This document shows, piece after piece, positions 1,755 through 64,000 of a stretch of DNA of 64,000 nt. Numbering within the stretch: position 1 is the first letter of the stretch; each line of letters starts with the position of its first letter. The stretch covers positions 5,115-69,114 of the forward strand of contig JAXDCM010000100.1 of NCBI GenBank assembly GCA_034677965.1. The letters run 5' to 3'. The notes below the pieces were generated by a model, which searched no databases, had not been told where the DNA came from, and saw only the letters and a program-made list of their open reading frames with translations. Position numbers and translations under genes: made by a program. This DNA is from Syntrophales bacterium. Its GTDB lineage: Bacteria > Desulfobacterota > Syntrophia > Syntrophales > UBA5619.

Positions 1755-1768
1755 CGGAGGGTCGGAGA

Positions 1769-5894: not shown

Positions 5895-5963
5895 AGATCT
5901 CCCTCCATATGCTTTCCCGAATCGGGTGGTTTGAGGATCCTTTCTGTCAATTCCGTCGAGGGT

Positions 5964-7775: not shown

Positions 7776-7837
7776 GTCCTGCCTCCTTTTCAGTGAGCCT
7801 GGTGTTGGAAGGGTATCGTGAACCCTCGCGACATTGG

Positions 7838-44856: not shown

Positions 44857-44858
44857 AA

Positions 44859-47802: not shown

Positions 47803-47852
47803 CCGATGATCCGTTTGCGGCGCTGAAAAGTTTTCACCGTTCAGGAAAAGGG

Positions 47853-48967: not shown

Positions 48968-49981
48968 TTGCGTATGAAGCGTTCAGGTTTGCTGTGCGTT
49001 GTTGTGATCATGGCCATGTGCCTGGCAGTTAGCGCACCGGCTGCGGAGAAGGTGACCGTTTATACCTCCCTCGAAACGGATGAAACGGTCAAATATCTCG
49101 AATTAGCCAGAAAGGAGTTGCCGGATCTTGAAATCAATGTCATCCGTCTTTCCACCGGCGAACTGGGCGCCCGCATGCTGGCTGAAAAAGACAACCCGCA
49201 GGCGGACCTGGTATGGGGCTGGGCCGTCACCGACATGGAACAGTTTATTCCTAGGGGACTTGTCGTGCCTTACAAACCGAAAGGGGTGGAGAGGCTCGAA
49301 AAACGATTTGTCCATCCTCAGTTTATGTATGTCGGCATTGATATGTACATTGCCGCATTCTGCGTCAATACGAAGGTGATGCAGGAGAAAGGGCTTCCGA
49401 TGCCCAAGGGGTGGAACGATCTCCTGGATCCGAAATTCAAGGGTCTTGTCACCATGCCCAACCCGGTGGCTTCCGGGACAGGCTTCCTACAGGTGGCCAG
49501 CATCCTGCAGATGTACGGCGCAAAGGAAGGCAAGGAGGACGGCTGGGAATTTCTGAAGAAACTCGACAAGAATATCGGTCAGTACATCAAGAGCGGTTCC
49601 CGTCCTGCAAAAATGACCGCAGCAGGCGAGTTTGCCGTCGGGGCCTCCTTTGAATTCGTTGTTGCTGAATTGATCAAACAGGGCTTCCCGGTGAAATTCG
49701 TATTCCCGGTTGAGGGAGCCGGGTATGAAGTGGAGGCCAATGCACTGATGAAAGGCGCGAAAAATCCCAATGCGGCCAAAAAATTCCTGGATTGGGCCAT
49801 TACGGACAACGCCATGAAGGCTTATTCGGCATTCAAACATGGTGTGACCCTGCCGGGGATTCCGTCCCGTCCGGATCTCCCAAAGCTCTCCGAGATCAAA
49901 CTCTACCCCATGGATTTTGCATGGCAGGCGAAAAACGCCCCCGACATCAAAAAGAAGTGGGAAACCCTATTCAACCGATAA
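48968..49981 (+). CDS. ABC transporter periplasmic substrate-binding protein, Fe3+/2-aminoethylphosphonate (PhnS)-type family
   Basis: Signal peptide (LLCVVVIMAMCLAVSAPAAE), VTVYTSLE, NPVASGTGF and GQYIKSGSRPA segments. AAGGAGG SD. Confidence 0.8.
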   Translation: MRMKRSGLLCVVVIMAMCLAVSAPAAEKVTVYTSLETDETVKYLELARKELPDLEINVIRLSTGELGARMLAEKDNPQADLVWGWAVTDMEQFIPRGLVVPYKPKGVERLEKRFVHPQFMYVGIDMYIAAFCVNTKVMQEKGLPMPKGWNDLLDPKFKGLVTMPNPVASGTGFLQVASILQMYGAKEGKEDGWEFLKKLDKNIGQYIKSGSRPAKMTAAGEFAVGASFEFVVAELIKQGFPVKFVFPVEGAGYEVEANALMKGAKNPNAAKKFLDWAITDNAMKAYSAFKHGVTLPGIPSRPDLPKLSEIKLYPMDFAWQAKNAPDIKKKWETLFNR

Positions 49982-49991
49982 CGGTCAAATC

Positions 49992-50021
49992 CCGGTCATC
50001 CCGCCCGTGCGGGATGACCGG
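49992..50021 (+). promoter_or_regulatory. intercistronic stem-loop after the binding-protein gene
   Basis: Perfect 13-bp stem CCGGTCATCCCGC / GCGGGATGACCGG with a 4-nt loop, 10 nt after the stop. It is followed by AAATAAAATTT, which is not a clean U-tract. Confidence 0.5.
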
Positions 50022-50078
50022 AAATAAAATTTACCTTCATTCTGTATAGAACACTGAACGTCTATGAGAGGATGGACA

Positions 50079-51164
50079 ATGGGTAGAGATCTCAAGCTGG
50101 AGCAGTTGACAAAACGCTACGGGAATCTTACCGCGGTCGATCATGTGAACCTGGAGATCAAGGAAGGGGAATTTATCTGCTTTCTGGGGCCGAGCGGTTG
50201 CGGGAAAACCACAATCCTCAGGATGATCACCGGATTTGAAACCGTCACGGAAGGGAACGTAATTTTCAACGACCGCATCATCAACGACCTGCTTCCCAAG
50301 AAGCGGGAGTTCGGGATCGTCTTTCAATCCTACGCATTGTTTCCGAATATGACCGTGGAGGAGAACATTGCCTTCGGTCTCAGGATGAGAAAGTGGTCAA
50401 AAAGGGACATCAAAGAACGGGTGGACAAGATGCTGGACCTGATCGGTCTGTCCGACTGGCGAAAACTCTATCCCGCACAACTCAGCGGAGGCCAGCAGCA
50501 GCGTGTCGCCCTGGTGAGGGCTCTCGCCCCCGATCCACAGGTTCTGCTCCTCGATGAGCCTCTGAGCGCGCTGGATGCGAAAATCAGACTCCGTCTGCGG
50601 GCGGAGATCAAGCGCCTGCAGCAGGAATTGAAAAAAACGATGATCCACGTCACACACGACCAGGAAGAGGCACTCTCTATAGCGGATCGCGTGGTGGTCA
50701 TGGAAAAAGGGCAGTTCAGGCAGGTGGGACGACCGATCGACATCTATAAGAACCCGACCTGCAATTTCGTCGCGGATTTCGTGGGCACCTCCAACTTTTT
50801 TTCGGGACGCCGTACCGTGGATGTTGTCGATATCGGCAGCAGGAAGATCAAGGTGACGCACAACGGCGACAGAAGGGAAGAGTCTGTTTCCCTGGCGATT
50901 CGCCCGGAAAACGTGGAAGTTTTTAAGGGGGACTCCATCCCCGAGGTTTCCGAACCCATGAATCTCTCTAACGGAAAGATCGAAGTGGTGGTGTTTCAGG
51001 GTGCCGCCGTCAGGCTTCTGATCCGTCTGAATGGAGAAGAGATCATCTCGGACATCATCGAAAAGGATTTCGAACAGCGTGCCTTGAAAACAGGTGATCG
51101 GGTTTATGTCTACTGCGCGCCTGAATCCTATCTGGTGTTTCCGGAAGAGGAGTGTGCCAAATGA
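50079..51164 (+). CDS. ABC transporter ATP-binding protein (PotA/FbpC/PhnT type with C-terminal TOBE-like domain)
   Basis: Walker A GPSGCGKTT, signature LSGGQQQR, Walker B LLLDEP. GAGAGGA lies upstream of ATG 50079. Confidence 0.9.
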   Translation: MGRDLKLEQLTKRYGNLTAVDHVNLEIKEGEFICFLGPSGCGKTTILRMITGFETVTEGNVIFNDRIINDLLPKKREFGIVFQSYALFPNMTVEENIAFGLRMRKWSKRDIKERVDKMLDLIGLSDWRKLYPAQLSGGQQQRVALVRALAPDPQVLLLDEPLSALDAKIRLRLRAEIKRLQQELKKTMIHVTHDQEEALSIADRVVVMEKGQFRQVGRPIDIYKNPTCNFVADFVGTSNFFSGRRTVDVVDIGSRKIKVTHNGDRREESVSLAIRPENVEVFKGDSIPEVSEPMNLSNGKIEVVVFQGAAVRLLIRLNGEEIISDIIEKDFEQRALKTGDRVYVYCAPESYLVFPEEECAK

Positions 51165-52912
51165 ACGCCGTGCAACCCTCCGGAAAAGGATTCTTCTCAT
51201 GGTTTACCGCCGACAACCTCTTCACCTGGGTGATCACGATTTTTCTGTTGGTCGTTCTGACGGTCTTTCTGCTCTATCCGGTGGTCGATATCTGCCGGCT
51301 GAGCTTTATCAGGGATGGGTTTTTTACCCTGCAGAACTATCTCGATTTTTTTGCCGAACCCCGGATATACAAATCCTTTTACAACAGCATGTATGTCTCC
51401 ATTGTGACGATGGTCGTCACGACGGTGCTGGCCTTCCTGTTCGCCTACGGCCTGACCCGCACGACCATGCCCGGCAAGGGATTCTTCTACATGGTCTCGA
51501 CACTTCCGTTGATCGCGCCGACCATCATCCAGGCCCTGGCGCTCATCCTGCTCTTCGGGCGGAACGGCGTGATCACACGTTACCTGCTGGACACGAGCTG
51601 GAATATTTACGGCGCCACGGGCATCATTGTGGGAGAGGTACTCTACTGTTTTCCCAACGCGCTTTTCATCCTCTATACGACCCTGTCTGCCGTGGATACG
51701 AGGTTGGATGAAGCCGCACAGAGCCTGGGGGCATCGGCCCTGAAAACTTTTTTCAAGGTGACGCTCCCGTCGGCGAAATACGGAATTGCCAGCGCGGCGG
51801 CGCTCTGCTTCAATTTGACCATCACGGACTTCGGAATTCCGATCGTCATCGGGGGCGACTATTCGGTTCTGGCGACGGAGATCGTCAACAAGGTCTTCGG
51901 CATGCAGCGCTTCGACCTCGGGGCGACGATCAGCGTGATCCTGCTGGTCCCCTCCATCACCGCTTTTGCGATCAATTACTACCTGACACGAAAAAGCTAT
52001 GCAATGATCAGCGGCCAGGCCCGGCCGTTCATCCAGCCTTCCCGGCCGCTGAAGAAGTGGGGATTTACGATCTACTCGGTCTTCGTATGTTCGAGTATCC
52101 TGCTGGTCTTTGTCACGGTCTTTTTGGGATCCTTTGTCAAGACCTGGCCCTACGATTTTACGCTCACCCTGAAGCACTTCGATTTTCCGTCGCTCGGAGC
52201 CAGCGTGCCAATCTGGACCTCTTTCTGGAACAGCGTGTTGGAGCCGGGACCGTTCCGCGAGATGATCGCCATCAAATACGCCCCGATTTGGACCAGTCTT
52301 CTGGTTTCCCTGGTGGTAGCGGCGATTGGGGCATCGATCACGCTGGTAGCCTCCTACATCATCGAGAAAAAGAAACCCCGCGGCGAGCAGCTTCTCTATG
52401 CGCTGTCGGTGTTGCCGGCGGCCATCCCCGGCGTCGTCCTCGGGCTGGGATATGTTTTGGCTTTCAACAAACCGTACTTTTTGATTTACGGCACCATCTG
52501 GATCATCATCATCAATGTGGTGATCGCGAACTTCACGCTGGGTGTCCTTTCCGGAACGGCCAACCTCAAGCAGATCGATAAGTCTGTCGAGGAGGCCGCG
52601 GTCAGCCTCGGCGCGGGACCCGTAACCACCTTCACCCGAATCGTCTTTCCGCTCTCCAAGGTGGCCTTTCTTTCCACGACCACCTTCTTTTTTATGCGGG
52701 CGATGACCACAATCAGCGCGGTTCTGTTTTTGGTTTCGGCACAGATCAAACTGGCCGCCATCGAGATCATTTTTCTCGATGTGGACGGGCGTACGGCAAG
52801 CGCCAACGCCATGTGCACCGTGGTTGTTCTCATTGTCGCGTTGTTCCTGGTCATTATGAGGGTTACAACCGGCAGCACGGGGCTTTCGGGGATGAGCGGC
52901 ACAAAGGGATAG
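51161..52912 (+). CDS. ABC transporter permease, fused double-domain (two BPD-type modules)
   Basis: 583 aa with about 12 spans and two EAA-like regions (DEAAQSLGAS.., EEAAVSLGAG..). ATGA overlap with the ATPase stop. Confidence 0.85.
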   Translation: MNAVQPSGKGFFSWFTADNLFTWVITIFLLVVLTVFLLYPVVDICRLSFIRDGFFTLQNYLDFFAEPRIYKSFYNSMYVSIVTMVVTTVLAFLFAYGLTRTTMPGKGFFYMVSTLPLIAPTIIQALALILLFGRNGVITRYLLDTSWNIYGATGIIVGEVLYCFPNALFILYTTLSAVDTRLDEAAQSLGASALKTFFKVTLPSAKYGIASAAALCFNLTITDFGIPIVIGGDYSVLATEIVNKVFGMQRFDLGATISVILLVPSITAFAINYYLTRKSYAMISGQARPFIQPSRPLKKWGFTIYSVFVCSSILLVFVTVFLGSFVKTWPYDFTLTLKHFDFPSLGASVPIWTSFWNSVLEPGPFREMIAIKYAPIWTSLLVSLVVAAIGASITLVASYIIEKKKPRGEQLLYALSVLPAAIPGVVLGLGYVLAFNKPYFLIYGTIWIIIINVVIANFTLGVLSGTANLKQIDKSVEEAAVSLGAGPVTTFTRIVFPLSKVAFLSTTTFFFMRAMTTISAVLFLVSAQIKLAAIEIIFLDVDGRTASANAMCTVVVLIVALFLVIMRVTTGSTGLSGMSGTKG

Positions 52913-52924
52913 GGTATTTCGATC

Positions 52925-53695
52925 ATGAACGTCATCGATCCGGACAATCCCATACCCAAATATCTGCAGATCAGCGCCTGGATCAGGGAACTGATCCAGT
53001 CGGGGAGATATGAACGGGGAACATCGCTTCCGTCGGAGGTCGAACTGTCCAAGATCTGCCAAGTCAATCGCAATACCCTTCGTCAGGCCATTGCCGAACT
53101 GACTGCGGCGGGAATGCTGCGAAAGGAAAAAGGTCGCGGAACCTTTGTCTGCGCGGAAACACCTCTTGCCGTTACGCACAAGCTCAAGAGCATTTCGAGT
53201 TTCAGCGCGGACCTGCATGAGCTTGGAATCAAGGAAAGAAACCGCATCGTTAAAAAGAGCATAGAGGAGGCCAGCGATCAGGTCGCCAAAAAGCTGATCC
53301 TGAGTCCGAACGGTAAAGTTGCGGTGATCCGCCGCATCCGGAGCGGCAACGACGTCCCATTCATTTACGAGGAGAGCTACCTCCCGGGTTCCACGTTCCG
53401 TGACATCTTGGAGATGGACTTGACCGGTTCGATGTACCAGATCATCCATGAGCGATTCAACGTCACCCTGGCCCGGTCGGACCAGAAAATTCGCGCGGTC
53501 AACTTGAAAGGCCTTATCGCGTCTTATCTCGATGTCCCGGAGAAGTCGGCCGCTTTTTTCATGGAGAGTCTGACCTACGACGAAAACAATGTCCCCGTGG
53601 AGCTTTTGTATTCCTACTATCGGGGAGATAAATATGTTTTTGAAATCGAGCTTGGCCGTTACCACATTGAAGAGGACCGGATACACCACGAATAA
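52925..53695 (+). CDS. GntR-family transcriptional regulator, HutC/UTRA subfamily
   Basis: Winged HTH (LPSEVELSKICQVNRNTLRQAIAELTAAGMLRKEKGRGTFV) followed by a UTRA-like effector domain. Confidence 0.88.
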   Translation: MNVIDPDNPIPKYLQISAWIRELIQSGRYERGTSLPSEVELSKICQVNRNTLRQAIAELTAAGMLRKEKGRGTFVCAETPLAVTHKLKSISSFSADLHELGIKERNRIVKKSIEEASDQVAKKLILSPNGKVAVIRRIRSGNDVPFIYEESYLPGSTFRDILEMDLTGSMYQIIHERFNVTLARSDQKIRAVNLKGLIASYLDVPEKSAAFFMESLTYDENNVPVELLYSYYRGDKYVFEIELGRYHIEEDRIHHE

Positions 53696-53696
53696 T

Positions 53697-53727
53697 TTGC
53701 ACAAGTCAGAGATATGTTGTATATACA
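53697..53727 (+). promoter_or_regulatory. candidate promoter with overlapping GntR/HutC-type palindromic operator
   Basis: TTGCAC (53697-53702), a 17-nt spacer, then TATATA (53720-53725). The perfect 10-bp palindrome TGTATATACA (53718-53727) contains GTATATAC, matching the HutC-subfamily GTnTAnAC core. Confidence 0.4.
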
Positions 53728-53768
53728 TCTAAACATTTATATCTGAATAGAGGTGAAAAGGGGGAAAA

Positions 53769-54968
53769 ATGAACGAAAACAACCTGCTGGAGAAACTGGT
53801 TCAAGTCAGTCCCGGAATGGAAATCTGGTGGGATTCTTCGCCGGTGATCTTCGAAAACTGGTGCCGCAAGCTTCTGGCGAAAACGCAAGAGGCGGACCAG
53901 GAAACACTTAAACGTCAATTCTCACGGATGTACGATGGGAAAAATCCGGAAAAATGGCTCTTTCGGGGCGTCACAACCAACCCCTCGCTTTCCCTCCAGG
54001 CCATCAAGGATGACGAACCATACTGGAAGAAAGTGGTTCAGGGGATGATCCGGGAGAATCCCGGGATCGACAAGGAGTCCCTCTTCTGGCTTCTCTACAA
54101 AGAGATTGTCCGGCGTGGATCGGAAATGTTCCTGCCGCTTTTCGAGAAAAGCGGCCACCGAGAAGGATACCTCTCCGGCCAGGTCGACCCGCGCAAGTGT
54201 CACGAACGGGACGTGATGCTCAAACAGGCGGATGACCTCGCATCCATCAATCCAAACGTGATGATCAAGGTTCCCGGGACCAAGGCAGGTTATGAAGTCA
54301 TCGAGATCCTCACCTCCAAAGGAATCGCCACGAACAACACGCTCACGTTCGTTTTGCCGCAATTGATGGATTGCGCCAAGTCCGTGCAGAGAGGCTTGGA
54401 AAAGGCCAAGGCGAACCATGTGGATCTTTCGCGCTGGCGATCCGTAATCACGCACATGGAAGCCCGTTACGGAGATCTCGGAGGGCTTCGAGATTTCGCA
54501 AAAGAGAAGGGAATCGAACTGACGGAAGGGGAGGTGCGGCTCGCGGAACTGGCCATCTTCAAGAAGGCCTACCGGCTGATCAAAGAGCGGAAATATCCGA
54601 GCAAACTGCTCTCCTGTTCGCTGAGGGTGGGACCGAAGGTAAACGGGGTGTTGAAGCTCTGGCACCTGGAAGAAAAGGCGGGCGCCGACATCGTGGTGAC
54701 CTGTCCTCCGACATTCATTGACGAGGTGATCCATTTCCCGAACCAAGAGCAGATCGTCTTTGATAAAGGGAGGATCGACCGGGAAATTCCGAAGGCGGCA
54801 TTGGAGAAGTTGCTGCGCATCCCGTATTTCGAAAGGGCCTACGCCGAGGACGGCTATTCGCGCGACGAGTACAAGAACCTTCCGCCGCTGGTCAAGACGG
54901 CGCAGCAATTCAGCAAGGCCACGGACGATATGGCGGACTTTGCCGGGAAATGTATAGAAGAAAAATAA
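53769..54968 (+). CDS. divergent transaldolase-family (class I aldolase fold) protein
   Basis: GVTTNPS, MIKVPGT (Schiff-base Lys context) and TNNTLTF motifs. 399 aa. GAGGTGAAAAGGGGG SD region. Confidence 0.75.
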   Translation: MNENNLLEKLVQVSPGMEIWWDSSPVIFENWCRKLLAKTQEADQETLKRQFSRMYDGKNPEKWLFRGVTTNPSLSLQAIKDDEPYWKKVVQGMIRENPGIDKESLFWLLYKEIVRRGSEMFLPLFEKSGHREGYLSGQVDPRKCHERDVMLKQADDLASINPNVMIKVPGTKAGYEVIEILTSKGIATNNTLTFVLPQLMDCAKSVQRGLEKAKANHVDLSRWRSVITHMEARYGDLGGLRDFAKEKGIELTEGEVRLAELAIFKKAYRLIKERKYPSKLLSCSLRVGPKVNGVLKLWHLEEKAGADIVVTCPPTFIDEVIHFPNQEQIVFDKGRIDREIPKAALEKLLRIPYFERAYAEDGYSRDEYKNLPPLVKTAQQFSKATDDMADFAGKCIEEK

Positions 54969-54994
54969 CAATATCCATGAAAGGAGATCAAGAT

Positions 54995-56089
54995 ATGAAG
55001 CCCCTGAAAGAATGGTTTGTTCCCTGGTTGTTCACGGCGCGGGAATACAACACGGCCATACTCGACAAGGCTTGGGCGAAACCGGATTACGGCCGCCTGA
55101 TGCTGAACGAGAACCCGATTCCCCCTTCGGATAAGGTGATCCAGGCAGTGGCCGATGTCCTCAAAAACGGGAACCGTTATCCCGACAGCATGCTGCGGCT
55201 AAGGACCAAACTGGGGAAGCTCCACAACCTCGGGCCCGACAACATCGCCCTGTGCAACGGCTCTTCGGAGATCATCGATTGCATGATGCGGATCTTCCTC
55301 CAGCCGGGCGATGAATTCATCGTTTCCAATCCGACGTTCGGACTCTTCCCGCCCCGGGCGGAATTGGTTGGTGGAAAGGTGGTTTCCATCCCCTTGCGCA
55401 AGGAGGATCTCCAGTATGACGTGGACGCCATGCTCAAGGCGATCACACCAAAAACCAAGGTGATCCTGGTCATCAACCCCAATAATCCGACCGGTATCTT
55501 CATCGACGACAAGGATCTGATCCGCTTCTGCGAGACGGGGATTCCTCTGTGCGTCGACGAAGCCTATCTGGACTACCATCCCGAGATTCCGTCCAAGGAC
55601 TTCCTGATCAAGAAGTATCCCCAGGTTTTCCTTTCGCACACCTTTTCCAAAGCATACGGCTTTGCCGGAATCCGCTTCGGGTACGTCGTGGGAACGGAAG
55701 AGATGGTCAAGGCCTTCAACACCATGTTCCTGCCCTGGAACGTAAGCCTGATGTCGATGGCGGCGGCGGAGGCCATCCTGGACAATCCGGGAGAGGTTCA
55801 GGCAAAGGTCAAGCACAACAACCGCTGGATGGACATCTTCACCAAGGAACTGGTCCAGGTCGGCCTGAAACCCTTCCCGGCGCACGGCAACTACATGCTC
55901 GTGGACGCCACGATGACCGGCAAGACCACGTCCCAGATTTTGGCGGCGGCGCTGGAGACGGAGCATCTCTTCCTGAAGAGCATCCCTGTGATCCATGGCA
56001 AGGACGGCTATTTCCGTGTGACGCCGGGCCTGGACGAGGAAAACGAACGCTTCGTGCGTTTCGTCCGCAACTATTTCGGTAAAAAATGA
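54995..56089 (+). CDS. PLP-dependent aminotransferase/decarboxylase of the HisC/CobD (class II) family
   Basis: LNENPIPPS, INPNNPTG and TFSKAYGFAGIRFGY (PLP Lys). AAAGGAG lies 9 nt upstream of ATG 54995. Confidence 0.85.
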   Translation: MKPLKEWFVPWLFTAREYNTAILDKAWAKPDYGRLMLNENPIPPSDKVIQAVADVLKNGNRYPDSMLRLRTKLGKLHNLGPDNIALCNGSSEIIDCMMRIFLQPGDEFIVSNPTFGLFPPRAELVGGKVVSIPLRKEDLQYDVDAMLKAITPKTKVILVINPNNPTGIFIDDKDLIRFCETGIPLCVDEAYLDYHPEIPSKDFLIKKYPQVFLSHTFSKAYGFAGIRFGYVVGTEEMVKAFNTMFLPWNVSLMSMAAAEAILDNPGEVQAKVKHNNRWMDIFTKELVQVGLKPFPAHGNYMLVDATMTGKTTSQILAAALETEHLFLKSIPVIHGKDGYFRVTPGLDEENERFVRFVRNYFGKK

Positions 56090-56124
56090 AAGACAGGGAA
56101 AATCGCCCTTCCTGAAGCAAATGT

Positions 56125-56155
56125 CCCGGGAGCCTCCACCGGAAAGGCTCCCGGG
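56125..56155 (+). promoter_or_regulatory. intercistronic stem-loop between the aminotransferase and etfB
   Basis: Perfect 10-bp stem CCCGGGAGCC / GGCTCCCGGG with an 11-nt loop and no U-tract. Confidence 0.45.
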
Positions 56156-56207
56156 CTGAAACTCCGGATGATCCCGGACGATTCATTCGGCACTTTTGCG
56201 ACCCACC

Positions 56208-56975
56208 ATGCGGATCTATGTTTGCATCAAACACGTTCCCGACACGGCCGCGAACATCAGGCCGGTGGGGAAAACAAGATTCGATGAAACCGTCAAGTTC
56301 ATTGCCAACCCTTACGACGAATACGCGCTGGAGGAGGCCATCAGAATCCGCGAAAAGATCGCGGGGACGAGCGTGGTTGCGGTCACGGTCGGCAGAGAGG
56401 CCGCCGTTTCGACCTTGCGGACGGCTCTGGCCGTGGGCGCCGACCGGGCGATCCACATCCTGACGAAGGCCTATTTTACGGATGCCGTTGAAACGGCACG
56501 CCTCCTCTACAAGTCCATATCCGGCGAAGGTTTGCCGGATCTCATCCTGACCGGTCGCCAGTCGGTCGATACGGAGGGAATGCAGGTCCCGTATCGCCTG
56601 GGAACGCTTTTCGATATGCCCGTGGCCGTCAACGTGGTGTCCCTTCGCATCGACGGCGGAACCGCCACGGCGGAGCGGGAAATTGAAGGGGACGTGCGGG
56701 AGGTGATCGAAATGCGGATGCCCTGCATTGTCGGCGCCACCAAGGGATTAAACCATCCGCGTTCTCCCACCCTTCCGGACATGATGAAGGCAAAGAAAAA
56801 AGAGGTTCTCACCATTCCATCCGCGAATCTGGAAATTCCTGTATCAGATGCTTCCATGCCGCTTCTGGAACTTCAGGCGGTGCCCGACCGAACCCGGGGG
56901 CGAATGCTCGAAGGTTCCCCTGAGGACATGGTCCGGGAACTCCTGAACATCCTGCGGGAAAACAAAACATTGTAA
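56208..56975 (+). CDS. etfB: electron transfer flavoprotein beta subunit
   Basis: MRIYVCIKHVPDTAANI and NPYDEYALEEAIRI are typical of EtfB. No obvious SD. Confidence 0.88.
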   Translation: MRIYVCIKHVPDTAANIRPVGKTRFDETVKFIANPYDEYALEEAIRIREKIAGTSVVAVTVGREAAVSTLRTALAVGADRAIHILTKAYFTDAVETARLLYKSISGEGLPDLILTGRQSVDTEGMQVPYRLGTLFDMPVAVNVVSLRIDGGTATAEREIEGDVREVIEMRMPCIVGATKGLNHPRSPTLPDMMKAKKKEVLTIPSANLEIPVSDASMPLLELQAVPDRTRGRMLEGSPEDMVRELLNILRENKTL

Positions 56976-56992
56976 ACAAGAATCCTCAAGCG

Positions 56993-57991
56993 ATGAAAAG
57001 AATCGGTGTCTTGATTGAGCAAAGCAACGGAGAGGTCAGGAAAACCTCCCTGGGCGTTCTGGCGGCTGCCAGACATTTCAAAGACCGGGAGGTGTTTGCC
57101 CTGTTGATGGCCCCGAAGACGGAACCGTGCCGTGATACGTTGCGCCGTCACGGTTCGGATTGGATCGTATCGATCGCAAGCGCAGAAGGGGATTGGGCGT
57201 CCCTGCCTGAGGAACAGGCCGCTTCGATCGCCTGGGCTGTCCAGCATTGTGAACTCCAGGTCCTTCTGGGGTCGTCGGGACAGGTCGGAAGGGATCTGCT
57301 GGCCAGGGTGGCCTCACTGAATAATGCCCCCCTGGTCCTGGATTGCCTGCATCTGGACCTTGAGGGAGGGATTGCCCGGAAATCCCATTTTTCAGGCAGA
57401 GCGACAGCGACAATGAAACTGAACGGAATACCCTGGATATTGGGAATTCGGCCCAACGTCTTCGCAGAACGAATCGACCCGAGAGCCGGAAAGGTCATCG
57501 AGGTGAAGCCCGAGATCGCTTTTCGCAGGCGGATGATGGTCCGGGAAATCCGGCGGGGCGGCACGGGGGGACCGGATGTTTCGGAAGCGGAGATCATTGT
57601 TTCCGGCGGTCGAGGTTTGGGGTCGGCTGAGAACTTCAGGATTTTGCGCGACTGCGCGTCCAAGCTTGGCGCTGCGGTCGGAGCCTCCCGGGCGGCGGTC
57701 GATGCGGGATATGCGCCGCATGCGCTTCAGGTGGGACAGACCGGAAAAACCGTCAGCCCCAAGCTTTACATCGCCTGCGGAATCTCCGGCTCGGTACAGC
57801 ATTTCGCCGGAATGAAGACCTCCAAGGTGATCGTCGGCATCAACCAGGATAAAGATGCGCCGATTTTTCAGAAATGCGATTACGGTCTTCTCGGGGATCT
57901 GTTCGAGGTCGTTCCCGCCCTCACGAAAGAGCTGGATTCGAAAACCATTCAGGGCCGATCATCGGATGATGCCGTAAAGAATTCGTCATAG
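56993..57991 (+). CDS. etfA: electron transfer flavoprotein alpha subunit
   Basis: The C-terminal FAD domain VSGGRGLGS..GASRAAVDAGY..QVGQTGKTVSPKLYIACGISGSVQH is typical of EtfA. Confidence 0.88.
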   Translation: MKRIGVLIEQSNGEVRKTSLGVLAAARHFKDREVFALLMAPKTEPCRDTLRRHGSDWIVSIASAEGDWASLPEEQAASIAWAVQHCELQVLLGSSGQVGRDLLARVASLNNAPLVLDCLHLDLEGGIARKSHFSGRATATMKLNGIPWILGIRPNVFAERIDPRAGKVIEVKPEIAFRRRMMVREIRRGGTGGPDVSEAEIIVSGGRGLGSAENFRILRDCASKLGAAVGASRAAVDAGYAPHALQVGQTGKTVSPKLYIACGISGSVQHFAGMKTSKVIVGINQDKDAPIFQKCDYGLLGDLFEVVPALTKELDSKTIQGRSSDDAVKNSS

Positions 57992-58034
57992 ACTCGCCGG
58001 AGAGATCATTCCAGGAGACTGAAAGGAGAGGAGC

Positions 58035-60455
58035 ATGCGTGACAGTGCACAGGTCGTCATTATTGGTGGAGGGATCGTGGGATGCAGCATCGCCTATCAC
58101 CTGACCAAAATGGGATGGCGGGACGTGGTCATCCTGGAAAAGGGCGAGTTGACCAGTGGATCGACCTGGCATGCAGCCGGTCTTGTCGGTCAACTGCGCT
58201 CTCACCGAAATATTACACGGATGCTTCAATACAGCGTCGGTCTCTACAAGACGCTGGAAGCGGAGACGGGGCTGACGACGGGCTGGAAGGAGAGCGGTTG
58301 TCTCCACCTGGCGAGCACGAAGGAGCGCATCCTCGAGTTGAAGAAGGGAGCGACAACGGCCCGCAGTTTCGGACTCGATCTGCACATGATTACCCCGGAG
58401 GAAGCTCTGAAACTCTGCCCCATTCTGAATATGGAAGGGATTATCGGTGCAGCTTACATGCCCTCCGACGGCCAAGCCGACCCAAGCGGTCTGACCATGG
58501 CCTTGGCCAAGGGGGCCGTGAACCGAGGCGCAGCAGTGGAACAGAAGACCTTGGTCACGGGATTCGAAATCCGAAACAATCGAGCCGAAGCCGTACTGAC
58601 CGATAAAGGAAAAATCCGCTGTGAAATGGTCGTTAATGCGGCCGGGATGTGGGGCCGTCAGATTGGCCGCATGATGGGCGTGAACATTCCTTTGGTTCCC
58701 TTTCAACACCAGTATCTGGTCACCGAGGCGATTGAGGGGGTGCCGCCGGACATGCCGACGTTGCGGGATAAGGATAGCCTTCTGTACTACAAGGAAGAGG
58801 TGGGGGGACTTGTCATGGGCGGTTACGAACGGGATGGGATCCCCTGGTCTGTCCGGTGGGTGCCCCATGCGTTCACCCAGGAGCTTCTGGAACCAGACTT
58901 TGAACACTTCGAGTCCATTTCTCAGGCGGCGGTCCGCCGAACACCCTGCCTGGGAACTGCCGGGATTGCCCGCCTCGTCAACGGACCGGAGGCCTTTACG
59001 CCGGACGGGAATTGCATTCTGGGACCGGCTCCCGAAATCGAAAACGGATTCGTTGCCGTGGGATTTAATGCCTTTGGGATCGCTGCGGGCGGCGGCGCCG
59101 GAAAAATGCTTGCCGAATGGATCGTGGAAGGAGAACCGAGCCTGAACATCTGGCCGCTGGACATCCGCCGTTTTGGCCAGTACCACCATAGTCTCCGGTA
59201 TAACGTTGAACGCACAAAAGAGATCTACGGGAAGCATTACACCATTTCCTGGCCCCATGAGGAGCACGATTCGGCCCGGAGGGTGAAGCGTTCTCCTCTG
59301 TACTGGCTGTTGAAGGAAAAAGGAGCCGTTTACGGGGCGAAATACGGGTGGGAACGCGCCAATTGGTTCGCACCGCCCGGTGTGCCCGCTGAGGATTCCT
59401 GCACCTTCGGCATCCCAAACTGGTTCGAGCCGGTATCTGCGGAGCACAGGGCGGCGCGCGAAGCGGTTGTGCTCATCGACCAGTCATCGTTCAGCAAGTT
59501 CGAGGTGACGGGAACCGGTGCCCTGGCCTTTCTAAATTACGTCGCGGCCGGAAACCTGAACAGACCGGTGGGGACAACCGTATATACGCAGTTCTGCAAC
59601 AAACGCGGCGGTGTCGAGGCGGACGTCACCGTTTCCCGGGTGGAAAACGAAAAATTTTTTATCATTACCGGGACGGCCTTCGGGGCGCATGACTTCATGT
59701 GGCTCAAAAAGCACCTTCCAAAGGACGGATCCGTCGCGTTGCGCGACGTGACGTCCTCGTTTGCGATGATCAATGTCTGCGGCCCCCGTTCGCGGGAACT
59801 CCTGCAGGGGCTTTCCGAGGACGATTTCGGCAATGACGCTTTCCCCTTTGGTCAATGTCGGCAAGTCGTTATCGGGTATGCCCCCGTCCTGGCCCTCCGG
59901 GTCACTTACATCGGCGAATTGGGCTATGAGCTTTACATGCCGCCGGAATATGCCGCGGGTCTCTATGAGAGCCTCTGGGAAAACGGTCAGCCCCTCGGTG
60001 TCCGCAATGCCGGATACCGAGCGATCGATTCGCTGCGTTTGGAGAAGGGGTACTGCTACTGGGGCGCCGAGGTTTCGCCCGATTACACTCCCTTCGATGC
60101 CGGGATCGGCTTTGCGGTCAGCCTCGACAAAAGTCCCTTTATCGGACGGGAGGCTCTCCTGAAAATCAAAGAGGAGGGTGCGCCCTGGAAGCTGCGGACC
60201 TTCACGCTCGAAGCCGATCGGCCGATGCTGCTTCACGGAGGGGAAACCATCACCTGCCGCGGCAGGGTGGTCGGTGTGGTTACCAGCGGCGGTTTCGGAC
60301 ATGCGGTGGGAAAAACGATCGCCATGGGATATCTTTCCACCGAGGACTCGCAGGCCACTGATGGCTTTGCGGTCGAAGTTTTTGGAGAAGCTTTTCCGGC
60401 CACATTGGTGACGAAGGCTTGTTACGATCCTGAGAGGCTCAGGATATTTCTGTAG
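58035..60455 (+). CDS. dimethylglycine/sarcosine dehydrogenase-type enzyme (DAO FAD domain fused to GcvT folate-binding domain)
   Basis: VVIIGGGIVGCSIAYHL. SGSTWHAAGL is the motif holding the covalent-FAD His in DMGDH/SARDH. The C-terminal half has GcvT-like segments (YIGELGYELY, LRLEKGY). Confidence 0.88.
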   Translation: MRDSAQVVIIGGGIVGCSIAYHLTKMGWRDVVILEKGELTSGSTWHAAGLVGQLRSHRNITRMLQYSVGLYKTLEAETGLTTGWKESGCLHLASTKERILELKKGATTARSFGLDLHMITPEEALKLCPILNMEGIIGAAYMPSDGQADPSGLTMALAKGAVNRGAAVEQKTLVTGFEIRNNRAEAVLTDKGKIRCEMVVNAAGMWGRQIGRMMGVNIPLVPFQHQYLVTEAIEGVPPDMPTLRDKDSLLYYKEEVGGLVMGGYERDGIPWSVRWVPHAFTQELLEPDFEHFESISQAAVRRTPCLGTAGIARLVNGPEAFTPDGNCILGPAPEIENGFVAVGFNAFGIAAGGGAGKMLAEWIVEGEPSLNIWPLDIRRFGQYHHSLRYNVERTKEIYGKHYTISWPHEEHDSARRVKRSPLYWLLKEKGAVYGAKYGWERANWFAPPGVPAEDSCTFGIPNWFEPVSAEHRAAREAVVLIDQSSFSKFEVTGTGALAFLNYVAAGNLNRPVGTTVYTQFCNKRGGVEADVTVSRVENEKFFIITGTAFGAHDFMWLKKHLPKDGSVALRDVTSSFAMINVCGPRSRELLQGLSEDDFGNDAFPFGQCRQVVIGYAPVLALRVTYIGELGYELYMPPEYAAGLYESLWENGQPLGVRNAGYRAIDSLRLEKGYCYWGAEVSPDYTPFDAGIGFAVSLDKSPFIGREALLKIKEEGAPWKLRTFTLEADRPMLLHGGETITCRGRVVGVVTSGGFGHAVGKTIAMGYLSTEDSQATDGFAVEVFGEAFPATLVTKACYDPERLRIFL

Positions 60456-60598
60456 GCCGGATCGTTCATCCATGGTAAAGTAATGCAAAGGCGGGGAAAC
60501 ATCGATATAAACGGGCATCGGCCCGGGAAGATGCGGAGGGAAGGGCACTTCATGCCGTCGGGTCAACAGCTTTTTCTTCAATGGAAGGAGGGACCAAT

Positions 60599-61597
60599 AT
60601 GAATCGTATGAAAAAGTTCATTGGTTTGGCGATCGTCGCGGCGCTCACGGCGGGAATCATAACCGCGTCCCCATGCGATGCGCAGACGGAACTCCGTGTT
60701 TACACCCACAACGAGACGGCCGAGATGGAAAAATGGGTACCCATTGCGGAAAAGGCAATCGGCATGAAGATCGTCTGGAGTCCTCGGCTGGCATCCAATG
60801 AACTCTGGACCCGCGTATTGACGGAAAATCCCAACTTCAATGCCGATGTGATCTGGGGCTTTCTGAACTCGGACGCGCAAGTGGGGACCCAAAGGGGTTT
60901 TTTCGTTTCATACTCATCGCCCGCATGGGCGGATATCCCGGCCGAATTCAAGGACCCGGATCATCATTGGTACGGGTATAACTATTGGTTTTCCGCCATT
61001 GCCGTCAATCCGGATCTCCTGAAAAAGAAAAACCTGCCGAAACCGGCATCTTGGGTGGACCTGACCAATCCCGTCTACAAGGGAGAGATCGTGATGCCCG
61101 ACCCCGCCACAAGCGGCACGGCGTTTATTTTCGTCTCCGCGGTGATGCAGATCTTCGGCGAAAACAAGGGCTGGGAAATCCTGGAGAAGATACACAAGAA
61201 CGCCGGCCAATACACCAAATCCGGTTCGGCGCCGGCCCAGTCCGTTGCGCAGGGGGAATACGCCATCGGGGTGAGCTGGGATCAGGCCGTATACGGAAGG
61301 GTGCAGCAGAAATTCCCCATTGAGGGTCTCATCCCGACCGAAGGGACCGCGTTTGACCTGGAGTCCGTGGCCATTCTGAAGGGGACGAAAAATCTTGCCG
61401 CCGCGCAGAAGCTCGTGGACTGGTTGGGCACCAAGGAGGGACAGACGCAGATCGGTCTTCTCCGTTCCAAGGTGACGCGACCCGGCGTTCCGGGAAAAGT
61501 GCTCGTCGATCCCAAACTGATCAAGTATGATGCGCTATGGGCCGGGGAAAACAAGAAGCGCATCATGACCGAGTGGGCGAAACGTTTCCAGAAATAA
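60599..61597 (+). CDS. second ABC substrate-binding protein, same PhnS/Fe3+-type family (distant paralogue of 48968..49981)
   Basis: Signal peptide (IGLAIVAALTAGIITASPCDA), LRVYTHNE, DPATSGTAF and GQYTKSGSAPA. GGAAGGAGGG SD. Confidence 0.8.
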   Translation: MNRMKKFIGLAIVAALTAGIITASPCDAQTELRVYTHNETAEMEKWVPIAEKAIGMKIVWSPRLASNELWTRVLTENPNFNADVIWGFLNSDAQVGTQRGFFVSYSSPAWADIPAEFKDPDHHWYGYNYWFSAIAVNPDLLKKKNLPKPASWVDLTNPVYKGEIVMPDPATSGTAFIFVSAVMQIFGENKGWEILEKIHKNAGQYTKSGSAPAQSVAQGEYAIGVSWDQAVYGRVQQKFPIEGLIPTEGTAFDLESVAILKGTKNLAAAQKLVDWLGTKEGQTQIGLLRSKVTRPGVPGKVLVDPKLIKYDALWAGENKKRIMTEWAKRFQK

Positions 61598-61647
61598 AAG
61601 CGGATATTCGTTTTTCAAGACTTGCAGGGTCAAGATTGTTTTGAGCA

Positions 61648-61681
61648 GGCATGGGGCGGGCGTTGAGTCCGGCCCCATGCC
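61648..61681 (+). promoter_or_regulatory. intercistronic stem-loop after the second binding-protein gene
   Basis: 10-bp stem GGCATGGGGC / GCCCCATGCC with a 14-nt loop, 50 nt after the stop. Confidence 0.45.
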
Positions 61682-61716
61682 GAAGCGGCATCCAGATCTG
61701 ACCATTTGGAGCCAGA

Positions 61717-63663
61717 ATGACTCTTTTCCCGGGCAGCGCCATCCTGAAGCGGCAAGTGGACGACTTCCGGTATATCTTCCGCAGGCCGGGTTTGCTGCTT
61801 GTCTCCTCGATTGCCGTTCTTCTGATTTTCCTCTTCATTGTCTTCCCGATCGGATCCGTGCTGATAAAAAGCTTTACCGTCAGCTATCCGACGGTCGGCA
61901 TCGCCGTTGCGGATGCGGGGTTTTCCGGCGCCGAGACGGCCGGAAGCGCAAACGATTCCCTGCTCCGGATTCTTCAACCCATCCAGGGGATCGAACAAAT
62001 CCGGATCGAAAGGGAAGCGGGGGCAACCGTTCATACGGTCCGTTTTCGCAAGGATTGGGACGATCTCAAGGGCTTCAACGACATCAAGCGCGCGATCCAG
62101 CGAAACCGGGGTTCCCTGGAGCCCGCGGTGGTGAACGCCAAGCTGTCGCTGGGAAAGGAAAGCACGGCCAGCCTGGCCACCTACATCGACTTCTTTTCCA
62201 GCGGTCGGTATTACCGTGCGCTGAAAAACAGCATTGTCGTGGCGATTGTGACCACGCTGCTGGTCATTCCGCTGGCCTTCTGTTTCGCTTTTCTGGGGCT
62301 CAAGGGGCCCGCCTTGCTGAAATTTCCGTTGAGGATGCTCGGTCTCATACCGCTGGTTGCGCCTCCTTTCATTTTTTCGCTGGCCCTGATCATCATCGGC
62401 GGCCGTCACGGCATCGTGACGCGTTTTCTGGATTTGCCGTTCGACATCTACGGATGGCGCGGGGTGATCATCGCCCAGGTGATCACCTTCCTGCCGCTGG
62501 GCTACCTGATGATCGAAAACGTGCTGCGCTCGCTGGGTTCCAATCTCGAAGATGCCGCCTATGACATGCGCGCAACCGACTGGCAGATCCTGTACAAGAT
62601 CACCATACCCCTTTCGTCTCCGGGCATTCTGAAGGCGGCTTTGCTTGTTTTCATCCTGTCGATCGCCGACTTCGGGAATCCGATGCTGATCGGCGGGGAT
62701 GTCCCTTTTCTTTCCACAGGCGCCTATCTTCTGTGGGTCAGCGAGAACAATCTCGAGATGGCGGCGGTCTTCTGTGTTTTTCTGGTCCTGCCCAGCCTGA
62801 TCATTTTCCTGGTGAACGAGTTTGTGCTGAGAGGAAAGGCCTTCACGACCATCGGTGGAAAGCCGCAGCAGACGGAGAGACGACCCATTGCCCCCAGAAT
62901 CCTCTACCCGATGCTGGTCCTGGTGGCGGCGGCTTCGGCGGCCATTCTTGTCAGCTTCGGGATCATTTTCGTCGGGGCCTTCACCAAAATCCTGATGGTG
63001 GACAACAGTCTGACCCTGGATCATTTCCGCAGCCCGAACGGCTTCAGGACGCTGATCACCAGCCTCAAGTTTTCGCTGGGGGCGGCCCTGGTGGCGCCGA
63101 CGGTCGGCATCGTCCTCTCCTATATCTTGGTCCGGAAAAGGGTTCCCCTGAAGAAGGTTGTGGAGTCTCTTGCCCTTCTGGGGTTTGCGGTTCCCGGCAC
63201 GGTGATGGGGATCGGGTATATTCTCGCCTTCAACAACCCGCCGCTGAAGCTCACCGGGACTTTCATCATCCTGATCGTCAACGAGGCATTTCGGAACCTG
63301 TCGGTCAGCCTTGAAGCCGGGGTCAGTAAACTCCATCAGATCGACGTGGCCATCGAGGAGGCGGCGGCCGACATGGGCGCCGGCGCCTTTCGGACCTTTT
63401 TCAGGATCGTTTTGCCCTTGATCAGCTCCGCATTCGTTGCCGGTTTCATCTACACATTCATGGTTGGAATGATCGCGGTGAGCGCGGTGATCTTCTTGAT
63501 CACCCCTGGTAACGACCTGGCGGCGCTGTATATTCTGAACGTGGCCGAGCAGGGTTATTTGGGAATGGCTTGCGCAATTTCCACGATGTTGATCGCCGTT
63601 GTCCTGGCCTGCCTGGGAGGGCTGAAACTATTGGTCAAATTGTCGAAAATAGAAATGTTCTAA
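61717..63663 (+). CDS. second fused double-domain ABC permease
   Basis: 648 aa with about 12 spans and two EAA-like regions (LEDAAYDMRAT.., IEEAAADMGAG..). GGAG SD. Confidence 0.85.
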   Translation: MTLFPGSAILKRQVDDFRYIFRRPGLLLVSSIAVLLIFLFIVFPIGSVLIKSFTVSYPTVGIAVADAGFSGAETAGSANDSLLRILQPIQGIEQIRIEREAGATVHTVRFRKDWDDLKGFNDIKRAIQRNRGSLEPAVVNAKLSLGKESTASLATYIDFFSSGRYYRALKNSIVVAIVTTLLVIPLAFCFAFLGLKGPALLKFPLRMLGLIPLVAPPFIFSLALIIIGGRHGIVTRFLDLPFDIYGWRGVIIAQVITFLPLGYLMIENVLRSLGSNLEDAAYDMRATDWQILYKITIPLSSPGILKAALLVFILSIADFGNPMLIGGDVPFLSTGAYLLWVSENNLEMAAVFCVFLVLPSLIIFLVNEFVLRGKAFTTIGGKPQQTERRPIAPRILYPMLVLVAAASAAILVSFGIIFVGAFTKILMVDNSLTLDHFRSPNGFRTLITSLKFSLGAALVAPTVGIVLSYILVRKRVPLKKVVESLALLGFAVPGTVMGIGYILAFNNPPLKLTGTFIILIVNEAFRNLSVSLEAGVSKLHQIDVAIEEAAADMGAGAFRTFFRIVLPLISSAFVAGFIYTFMVGMIAVSAVIFLITPGNDLAALYILNVAEQGYLGMACAISTMLIAVVLACLGGLKLLVKLSKIEMF

Positions 63664-63676
63664 AGAGGCGTCAGCC

Positions 63677-64000
63677 ATGATTCGGAAAGGGGACTCATTC
63701 ATACTGGAGTTGAAGAACATCGTCAAACGGTTCGGTGAATTAACGGCGGTGAATGACGTTTCCCTGGATCTGGAACGCGGGAAGCTGGTCACCTTTCTCG
63801 GTCCCAGCGGCTGCGGAAAGACCACGCTTTTGAGGGTCGTCAGCGGATTCACCATTCCCGACGAAGGAAAGGTTATTCTGGACGGAGTGGACATAACCGA
63901 TCTCCAGCCGAACGCGCGTGACACGGCCATGGTTTTTCAAAACTACGCCCTTTTCCCACACATGACCGTAGCCGCAAACATCGGATTCGGCCTCAAGATT
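63677..64000 (+). CDS. second ABC transporter ATP-binding protein (3' end outside window)
   Basis: Not in the ORF track because there is no stop inside the window. ATG 63677 follows AAAGAGG. The translation MIRKGDSFILELKNIVKRFG..GPSGCGKTTLLR..MVFQNYALFPHMTV is a Walker A/Q-loop ATPase. Confidence 0.85.
   Translation, partial: MIRKGDSFILELKNIVKRFGELTAVNDVSLDLERGKLVTFLGPSGCGKTTLLRVVSGFTIPDEGKVILDGVDITDLQPNARDTAMVFQNYALFPHMTVAANIGFGLKI

Follow-up and report, generated by a model that had tools for sequence, protein, structure and literature searches.

The most abundant membrane lipids carry phosphocholine and phosphoethanolamine (PEtn) as their head groups. In anaerobic metabolism, three fates are known for choline and ethanolamine, namely, cleavage by CutC to trimethylamine (TMA), B12-dependent deamination by EutBC, and a single demethylation by MthB, with excretion of dimethylaminoethanol. 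In Eubacterium limosum, phosphocholine is made by the APH-like kinase MthK and serves, where choline does not, as the substrate of the MttB-family enzyme MthB, whose demethylation product is N,N-dimethylaminoethanol phosphate; the corrinoid protein MthC and the tetrahydrofolate (THF) methyltransferase MthA complete the system, and dimethylaminoethanol is excreted (Jiang et al., J Biol Chem 2025, PMC12155760). Co-localized homologues of mthK and mthB are present in further bacteria, among them deltaproteobacteria and Sporomusa malonica, which grows on choline (PMC12155760), and a non-pyrrolysine MtmB homologue demethylates tetramethylammonium and choline (PMC13044021). Among transporters, AfuABC is a hexose/heptose-phosphate importer that was once annotated as an iron transporter (PMC4546632, PMC8427247). 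Here we describe a catabolic island at the end of a 64,000-nucleotide (nt) stretch of Syntrophales DNA (contig JAXDCM010000100.1; the whole stretch is called the window), which combines two ABC importers, a dimethylglycine dehydrogenase (DMGDH)-type enzyme with an electron transfer flavoprotein (ETF), an aminotransferase (AT), and a transaldolase-like (TAL-like) protein. The interpretation that we favor, at slightly better than an even chance, is that the island imports phosphocholine and PEtn, removes their N-methyl groups, transaminates PEtn to glycolaldehyde phosphate, and delivers the latter through the TAL-like protein into a pentulose phosphate.

The island extends from position 48968 to 64000 on the plus strand and runs off the end of the window. 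It comprises 12 co-directional genes with intergenic distances of -19 to 126 nt, encoding, in order, importer 1 (binding protein, ATPase, and permease), a GntR/UTRA regulator, the TAL-like protein, AT, EtfB, EtfA, the DMGDH-type protein, and importer 2 (binding protein, permease, and ATPase). This order and the domains, given in a preliminary description of the window made from its sequence, were confirmed by an open reading frame (ORF) listing and Pfam/NCBIfam scans. Synteny with related genomes covers the entire island in at least 12 cases (L001, L002, L005 to L007, L010, L011, L014, L016, L019, L088, and L112/L119), and this complete synteny indicates that the arrangement, whose conservation elsewhere had been left in question, is not due to chance. 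Its genes share 89 to 99% protein identity with those of a Syntrophales metagenome-assembled genome (MAG; L005), and homologues of the TAL-like protein, with up to 94% identity, belong to Syntrophales, Smithellaceae, and other Thermodesulfobacteriota, which identifies the host as an anaerobe.

In the proposed pathway, the two importers, of AfuA/PhnS2 type, would take up pre-phosphorylated amines, PEtn through importer 1 and phosphocholine or N-methylated PEtn through importer 2. The first methyl group of phosphocholine would be removed by an MthB-type corrinoid methyltransferase of the MttB family, giving N,N-dimethyl-PEtn, and the DMGDH-type enzyme would demethylate N,N-dimethyl- and N-methyl-PEtn, passing the methyl carbon to THF and electrons to EtfAB, possibly with help from an MtmB-family methyltransferase in the later demethylations. 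AT would convert PEtn and pyruvate to alanine and glycolaldehyde 2-phosphate, and the TAL-like protein would use glycolaldehyde phosphate as the acceptor of a dihydroxyacetone unit from fructose-6-P or sedoheptulose-7-P. The resulting pentulose 5-phosphate, predicted by stereochemical analogy with transaldolase to be D-xylulose-5-P, would be carried to triose phosphates by transketolase and the pentose phosphate pathway, and the GntR/UTRA protein would regulate the unit. All substrates and products, the pairing of importers with ligands, and the choice of enzyme for the second and third methyl groups are predictions from sequence and gene context. The order of import, THF- and ETF-dependent N-demethylation, transamination, and Schiff-base C-C chemistry was already suggested in the preliminary description, and it is backed by the comparative evidence presented below. 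A wider claim, to which we assign a little less than an even chance, is that this constitutes a full, O2-free degradation of phosphocholine and PEtn without release of TMA, in which all three N-methyl groups enter one-carbon metabolism and the C2 phosphate is kept and converted to pentulose phosphate, and that the route is widespread in Syntrophales, Desulfobacterales, and Thermoleophilia.

AT (54950..56089, plus strand) belongs to the HisC/CobD family of class I/II pyridoxal phosphate (PLP) enzymes (Aminotran_1_2, 164 bits). Its best model is HisC TIGR01141, at 252.8 bits, below the equivalog cutoff of 276.55, and it thus falls outside the HisC equivalog. Comparison with Escherichia coli HisC, for which residue identities were confirmed on the E. 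coli sequence, found all PLP residues conserved (Y55, N157, D184, Y187, T211, S213, K214, and R222). Positive charge is retained at both phosphate-binding positions, HisC R335 corresponding to R356 and HisC R322 being replaced by K343. HisC Y20, D85, and Y110, which we take from the structural literature on HisC to line the imidazole pocket, are replaced by L, S, and F, respectively. The retained residues and these replacements alike are essentially invariant among 46 homologues. The pattern fits a HisC/CobD-like enzyme acting on a small 2-amino-alcohol phosphate, for which PEtn is proposed here, with pyruvate as the amino acceptor. The true start of AT may be ∼45 nt downstream, as homologues have 364 amino acids.

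The TAL-like protein (53769..54968, plus strand; 399 amino acids) is a divergent member of the TAL_FSA family. It scores 110 bits against PF00923 (cutoff of 27) but falls far below the cutoffs of all NCBIfam TAL/FSA equivalogs (tal_mycobact, 86 against 234; talAB, 29 against 396; fsa, 43 against 246). A PDB sequence search aligned the N-terminal half alone, with 79 bits to 3r5e. An AlphaFold2 model (predicted local distance difference test score [pLDDT] of 88) has the transaldolase TIM-barrel fold, and a Foldseek search with it returned only transaldolases as top matches, with template modeling (TM) scores of 0.68 to 0.76 and 19% identity. Residues D17, N35, K132, N154, and T156 and the phosphate site R181/S226/R228 of E. 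coli TalB are conserved; in the numbering of the TAL-like protein, these include D22, N71, T191, the phosphate site R233/S284/R286, and the Schiff-base lysine K167 (TalB K132), which is invariant among 62 homologues. TalB E96 and F178 are replaced by Q138 and M230, both also invariant in this set; the F178 position is presumably that of the catalytic Tyr131 of FSA, an equivalence taken from the literature because the FSA alignment around Tyr131 is unreliable. The Pfam score, the modeled fold, and the Schiff-base lysine place the protein in the transaldolase/FSA superfamily, whereas the equivalog scores and the catalytic acid/base position both separate it from canonical transaldolases and FSA. 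The TAL-like protein is a distinct branch of the transaldolase family that very probably binds a phosphorylated substrate, and we propose that it may act as a transaldolase or aldolase accepting glycolaldehyde phosphate.

Scanning of a TAL-like alignment over one genome per species yielded 219 confirmed relatives, from which 80 loci were kept, with at least 66% identity to the query. The loci belong to Syntrophales, Desulfobacterales, and Thermoleophilia/Actinomycetota, with some from a few further groups. Neighbors were counted over 83 TAL-like loci by tblastn, ORF clustering, and Pfam/NCBIfam annotation of cluster representatives. An AT of the HisC-like type is present within 9 kb of the TAL-like gene in 67 of the 83 loci, and a GntR/UTRA regulator lies immediately upstream of it in 39. 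In the window this regulator, of HutC/PhnF type (Pfam GntR and UTRA), is encoded at 52925..53695 on the plus strand. The conserved core is the TAL-like/AT pair, often with GntR/UTRA. Alanine dehydrogenase (TIGR00518, 531 bits) occurs in 30 of 83 loci, usually between TAL and AT, a position that indicates pyruvate/alanine-coupled transamination, and transketolase, in a divergent 631-amino-acid or a canonical 681-amino-acid form, is found in 38 of 83. An orthologue of the DMGDH-type gene is less frequent (14/83).

These associations bear on the reading, which we consider most improbable, that the pair represents housekeeping tal and hisC genes that lie by chance between transport and demethylation genes. 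Strong conservation of the TAL-like protein across phyla (at least 66% identity) might be expected of a central enzyme, the gene stands alone in some genomes, and AT is just 24 bits under the HisC cutoff. Against this, the TAL-AT pair is linked in different phyla to GntR, alanine dehydrogenase, kinases, and transporters rather than to his or pentose phosphate operons, the HisC imidazole-pocket residues are lost in all 46 AT homologues, and the TAL-like protein has neither the transaldolase catalytic Glu nor a score reaching any NCBIfam TAL equivalog.

Several other features were observed around TAL-like genes. Two proteins of 67 to 70% identity are encoded in unexpected taxonomic contexts, one (L040) with GntR upstream on a contig binned as Promethearchaeota (an Asgard MAG) and one (L073) on a Paracoccaceae (alphaproteobacterial) chromosome beside LysR and a Zn-dependent alcohol dehydrogenase. 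These occurrences point to horizontal spread or, for L040, to misbinning. A gene of the 1-deoxy-D-xylulose 5-phosphate (DXP) reductoisomerase family (∼390 to 440 amino acids) lies upstream of, and divergent from, GntR in four loci (L027, L029, L049, and L065) and may be a housekeeping dxr or may act on a xylulose-5-P-like product. A HAD-family hydrolase of 330 to 340 amino acids is encoded near the TAL-like gene in L004, L010, L014, L017 to L020, L072, and L112/L119 and also in L045, L057, L036, and L076, and in Syntrophales adjoins a GT1 glycosyltransferase; its score against TIGR01548 is 80 bits, below the cutoff of 140. It could be a phosphate-balancing phosphatase or merely reflect conserved synteny.

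Kinases and importers were compared in the 43 loci whose sequence reaches 5 kb or more upstream of the TAL-like gene. Sixteen of them have a choline/ethanolamine kinase (PF01633) or an APH-family (MthK-like) kinase, in 13 cases together with a TRAP or APC-superfamily permease, and 11 have an AfuA/PhnS2-like ABC importer. No locus has both a kinase and such an importer (Fisher P = 0.003, without phylogenetic correction). Such exclusion would follow if a phosphate ester enters through the ABC systems, whereas the other systems bring in an alcohol that is then phosphorylated inside the cell.

Importer 1 consists of the periplasmic binding protein SBP1 (48968..49981; Pfam SBP_bac_8/6/1), ATPase1 (50064..51164; ABC_tran and TOBE_2), and the fused double-domain permease 1 (51152..52912; two BPD_transp_1 stretches). 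Importer 2 consists of SBP2 (60581..61597), permease 2 (61717..63663; 648 amino acids, also with two BPD_transp_1 stretches), and ATPase2 (63677..64000), which is truncated by the end of the window and whose start and Walker A motif, GPSGCGKT, were read from the sequence. All six genes are on the plus strand. Identity is 34% between the full-length binding proteins and 33% between the permeases; the importers are therefore old paralogues, as had been proposed from two pairs of short motifs, both of which are present.

SBP1 (328 bits) and SBP2 (254 bits) score below the cutoff of 392.75 of the PhnS2 model TIGR03261, as do ATPase1 against PhnT2 TIGR03265 (432 bits; cutoff of 457.7) and permease 1 against PhnU2 TIGR03262 (483 bits; cutoff of 593.25). 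The PhnS2T2U2-like character suggested in the preliminary description thus stands insofar as these are the best-scoring models for SBP1, ATPase1, permease 1, and SBP2, but every score lies below its curated equivalog cutoff. Among proteins of solved structure, SBP1 is closest to AfuA (4r72 to 4r75; 143 bits for 4r72), followed by P5PA (6wce; 122 bits), with at most 33 bits to ferric binders such as HitA, while SBP2 matches 8x1a (144 bits) and AfuA 4r72 (134 bits). Scores of the two binding proteins against the thiamine/sfuA model are 47 and 83 bits (cutoff of 93.4). Both binding proteins are therefore nearer by sequence to the organophosphate binders of the AfuA/P5PA type than to ferric-iron or thiamine binders, two functions that had been considered capable of overturning the initial interpretation.

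The SBP1-type importer also accompanies GntR-TAL-AT in L045, L057, and L069. The SBP2/permease 2-type importer, traced through permeases of at least 60% identity, is located beside MttB, MtmB-like, corrinoid, DMGDH, or APH kinase genes in 18 of ∼43 metagenome contigs, many of which are short. On this basis we propose PEtn or a close organophosphate amine as the candidate ligand of SBP1, and phosphocholine or another N-methylated organophosphate as that of SBP2. The likely substrates are phosphate esters (phosphocholine, N-methyl-PEtn, and PEtn) rather than phosphonates.

Degradation of the phosphonate 2-aminoethylphosphonate (AEP) and its N-methyl derivatives, with the HisC-like enzyme in place of PhnW, is very unlikely. 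It would account for importer 1 and SBP2 scoring best against PhnS2/T2/U2 and for a regulator resembling PhnF/PhnR, and pyruvate/alanine-coupled transamination is also the established logic of PhnW. Besides the subthreshold importer scores, the absence of phnW, phnX, phnA, and C-P lyase genes, already remarked on, extends from the island genes to the recurrent neighbors in the 83 loci, with no PhnW-type class V enzyme among them. Furthermore, the nearby HAD protein matches only TIGR01548 at an E value of ≤1e-10 and no PhnX model, the kinases of sister loci would be pointless for a phosphonate, and the product of the transaldolase would retain the C-P bond.

The link to phosphocholine comes from genes beyond the window. 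In the close relatives L001, L088, and L112/L119, ATPase2 is followed by genes for an MttB-family protein (481 amino acids), two corrinoid proteins (∼215 amino acids each), and an MtmB-family protein (459 amino acids), the MttB and MtmB genes being uninterrupted; an MttB-family gene directly follows ATPase2 also in L084 to L086. The MttB-family protein of these relatives is orthologous to, and 65% identical with, S. malonica protein P0219, which is encoded in the order APH kinase, MttB, corrinoid protein, and pterin-binding methyltransferase, i.e., in an MthK-B-C-A arrangement. The Syntrophales island has no adjacent MthK choline kinase, and MthK-like kinases are found in L033/L034/L047, L049/L065, and L118. 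In the Actinomycetota loci L033/L034/L047, genes for an APH kinase, MttB (62%), a corrinoid protein, an MtmB-like protein (70%), a ChoK-like kinase, and an ACT-family permease accompany TAL, AT, and transketolase. In the Desulfobacterales loci L049/L065, an MthK-like APH kinase, 48% identical to the S. malonica kinase, and a distant MttB occur with TAL, Ald, AT, DMGDH, and transketolase.

A second corrinoid methyl transfer system is encoded at the other end of the window (37-10997). It comprises a methylenetetrahydrofolate reductase (MTHFR) C-terminal-like protein (37-966) and a pterin-binding methyltransferase (960-1754), followed on the minus strand by a PocR/AraC regulator (1769-3103), a corrinoid protein (3051-3776), an MFS transporter (4539-5894), a URO-D-family methyltransferase (6615-7775), another corrinoid protein (7838-8518), and the reductive activator RACo (9015-10997). 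This system could supply the THF methyltransferase and activator for the downstream MttB/MtmB module.

The DMGDH-type protein (58035..60455, plus strand; 806 amino acids) has the DAO, FAO_M, GCV_T, and GCV_T_C domains of DMGDH and matches rat DMGDH (4p9s) at 584 bits but reaches no NCBIfam equivalog. Genes for its expected redox partner, EtfB (56196..56975; PF01012) and EtfA (56993..57991; PF01012 and PF00766), are located immediately upstream on the same strand. Orthologues (66 to 74% identity) adjoin TAL/AT in the Desulfobacterales loci L049, L065, L076, L077, and L082 and adjoin MttB/MtmB-like genes in L113 to L116. In a BLASTN search against plasmids, the enzyme block gave only partial matches, to 64 to 72% identical DMGDH/ETF paralogues of Alphaproteobacteria, a misleading hint of alphaproteobacterial origin, as protein homologues placed the window in Syntrophales. 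Gene context favors an N-methyl amine other than dimethylglycine or sarcosine for the DMGDH-type protein; its proposed substrates are N,N-dimethyl- and/or N-methyl-PEtn, which it may demethylate in an FAD- and THF-dependent manner. A GlpC/DsrK-like Fe-S (CCG-domain) oxidoreductase of 668 amino acids is encoded beside EtfBA or a DMGDH-like gene in L036, L077, L082, and L118 and is probably the membrane-linked acceptor that reoxidizes ETF; the island in the window has no copy.

The 806-amino-acid enzyme is most similar to genuine DMGDH, which speaks for a composite of two systems. In this reading, EtfAB and the DMGDH-type enzyme, together with importer 2 and the MttB, MtmB-like, and corrinoid genes downstream, form a unit for demethylation of glycine betaine, dimethylglycine, and sarcosine, separate from a unit of importer 1, GntR, TAL, and AT for a different substrate. 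Glycine betaine is a substrate of some MttB-family members, such as MtgB, and DMGDH and ETF are missing from many TAL-AT loci. A strong hairpin also separates AT from etfB: a perfect 11-nt inverted repeat at 56125..56155, extended to a 13-bp GC-rich stem, within the 107-nt gap, and the sole standout of a terminator scan, which gave 25 sites where shuffled sequence led to an expectation of 17.3 ± 5.2. Partial termination, RNA processing, or RNA stabilization at a suboperon boundary are possible roles of this element. The composite reading is nevertheless unlikely, as DMGDH orthologues and MttB/MtmB-like genes are embedded in TAL-AT-transketolase operons of unrelated lineages (L049, L065, L076, L077, L082, and L033/L034/L047), importer 2 is of the AfuA/PhnS2 organophosphate type and not of a betaine-binding type, and the adjacent MttB is 65% identical to the homologue in the MthK/MthB-type cluster of S. 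malonica, MthB being phosphocholine specific (PMC12155760). The island also differs from known sarcosine/dimethylglycine and opine loci, with which it might have coincided.

With phosphocholine and PEtn retained as the preferred substrates, another amino-alcohol phosphate handled by the same logic to a different carbonyl product, such as N-methylated 1-amino-2-propanol phosphate, serinol phosphate, or an amino-sugar phosphate, is quite unlikely. The family-level evidence shows only an amine with a phosphate-like group, and the kinases in other lineages are likewise assigned at the family level, but the MthK/MthB-type link is specific to choline/phosphocholine. In addition, serinol-P or 3-amino-1,2-propanediol-P should lead directly to dihydroxyacetone phosphate or glyceraldehyde 3-phosphate. 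Because such C3 amino-alcohol phosphates would need neither transaldolase nor transketolase, recruitment of both is best explained by a C2 aldehyde phosphate. Two further candidates were rejected. Sulfonates (taurine and N-methyltaurine, with sulfo-TAL/sulfo-TK logic) leave the kinases and the organophosphate-type binding proteins unexplained and would lack a desulfonating enzyme, and opine/Amadori catabolism has no amadoriase-type or opine oxidase context and is at variance with an anaerobic host.

Several points weigh against the proposed degradation of phosphocholine and PEtn. Every chemical step in it is predicted from protein families and genomic neighborhoods. The window stops within ATPase2 and itself has no MttB gene, its island has no transketolase gene, and the connection from MttB to MthB is bridged by the S. 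malonica homologue and not drawn from E. limosum MthB (WP_341455952.1) itself. At the position of the TalB general acid/base Glu, the TAL-like protein has Q138, and the Tyr that replaces this Glu in FSA is presumably also missing (M230 at the TalB F178 position); as both are replaced, the protein may catalyze another Schiff-base reaction. Its gene occurs without an aminotransferase in L017, L018, L020, L021, and L073, where the neighbors are unrelated, a GlcD/GlcF-like pair, or a Zn-dependent alcohol dehydrogenase, so that it may have a wider role than proposed or, in some genomes, a housekeeping one. The statistic for exclusion of kinases and importers is uncorrected for phylogeny, and the ABC-bearing loci are mostly from Syntrophales. 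TRAP transporters usually carry acids. As importer 1 and SBP2 score closest to models for putative AEP transporters, a phosphonate ligand is possible. Finally, in the Desulfobacterales loci L030, L031, L041, L043, L050, L056, L059, and L074, the TAL-Ald-AT core is followed by a D-alanine-related block comprising a class IV (D-amino-acid) aminotransferase, alanine racemase, PGA_cap, Asp/Glu racemase, a Ddl-like ATP-grasp protein, and an FGase-family amidohydrolase; this D-alanine/peptide-related block has no tie to the proposed pathway and is unexplained by it.

Directly upstream of the island (∼43700-48713) lie co-directional genes that, by synteny with L001 and L002, correspond to an arn-like set for modification of lipid A with aminoarabinose (DegT aminotransferase, GT2, formyltransferase, epimerase, and polysaccharide deacetylase); a connection with the island seems unlikely. 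An Rfam search of the whole window at gathering thresholds detected neither a riboswitch nor another RNA family, a promoter scan was uninformative (5 sites against 6.3 expected from shuffles), and no convincing GntR operator palindrome was found in four intergenic gaps of the island.

The preliminary description named no characterized pathway of this composition, and none was found in PMC open-access literature and bioRxiv to mid-2026. In the same literature, there was no description of a phosphoethanolamine aminotransferase, of glycolaldehyde phosphate as a natural catabolic intermediate, or of the TAL-like branch of the transaldolase family, and nothing relevant combining transaldolase with MttB or ETF. 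Within this coverage, only the first demethylation is already described (MthB, 2025), and both central enzymes, AT and the TAL-like protein, probably have new activities. Carbon, nitrogen, and phosphorus fluxes via phosphocholine and PEtn are large in sediments, digesters, and guts. If the proposed pathway is correct, TMA would be bypassed and estimates of methylamine-driven methanogenesis would be altered. Two enzyme activities would be added, a phosphoethanolamine aminotransferase and a glycolaldehyde-phosphate-accepting transaldolase, the latter of interest for engineered C2 assimilation, and a transaldolase-family branch that is large, highly conserved, and as yet unannotated would gain a function.

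Several parts of the island have described counterparts. AfuABC (hexose/heptose phosphate) and P5PA (PLP) are the closest solved relatives of both binding proteins and belong to a group long annotated as Fe3+ transporters that carries organophosphates, but the similarity is moderate (134 to 144 bits) and the neighbors in the island are amine-catabolic rather than sugar-phosphate genes. With the TalB/FSA family (PF00923), including sulfofructose transaldolase, the TAL-like protein has in common the fold, the Schiff-base lysine, the Asp/Asn/Thr residues, and the phosphate-binding Arg/Ser/Arg. It differs in its ∼19% identity to solved members, its length of 399 amino acids with large insertions, and its context, in which an aminotransferase gene belongs to the same catabolic operon. 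As in FSA, the catalytic Glu is replaced by Gln, but Met occupies the position of the FSA catalytic Tyr. The DMGDH/ETF pair of glycine betaine catabolism has the same domain architecture, a neighboring ETF acceptor, and THF-dependent N-methyl removal. Unlike that system, the island has no betaine, sarcosine, or glycine genes in its context, its host is anaerobic, orthologues of its DMGDH-type gene are tied to TAL-AT and MttB/MtmB-like genes, and the substrate is probably a phosphate ester.

The overall logic resembles that of PhnW-PhnX for AEP and Tpa-Ald-Xsc for taurine, in which an acidic β-substituted ethylamine is imported and transaminated with pyruvate to a substituted acetaldehyde that is then processed. 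Other common features are the recycling of pyruvate by alanine dehydrogenase, the family of the importer, and a regulator of the GntR/UTRA type. Nevertheless, the island AT is a class I HisC-type enzyme, while PhnW is of class V and Tpa of class III, the candidate aldehyde-processing enzyme is of the transaldolase family and not a HAD hydrolase or the thiamine diphosphate (ThDP) enzyme Xsc, and the importer scores below the PhnS2/T2/U2 cutoffs.

The Mth system of E. limosum shares with the proposed pathway demethylation at the level of the phosphate ester rather than of choline, and MttB-family and corrinoid genes follow the island in relatives. A pterin-binding methyltransferase, corrinoid proteins, and RACo are encoded at 960-10997, and MthK-like kinases occur with TAL-AT in Desulfobacterales and Actinomycetota. 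E. limosum removes one methyl group, excretes N,N-dimethylaminoethanol, and does not grow on phosphocholine. In contrast, the Syntrophales version has organophosphate ABC importers instead of a kinase, and the island adds a DMGDH-type enzyme with ETF, an MtmB-family protein, AT, and the TAL-like protein, which implies complete degradation.

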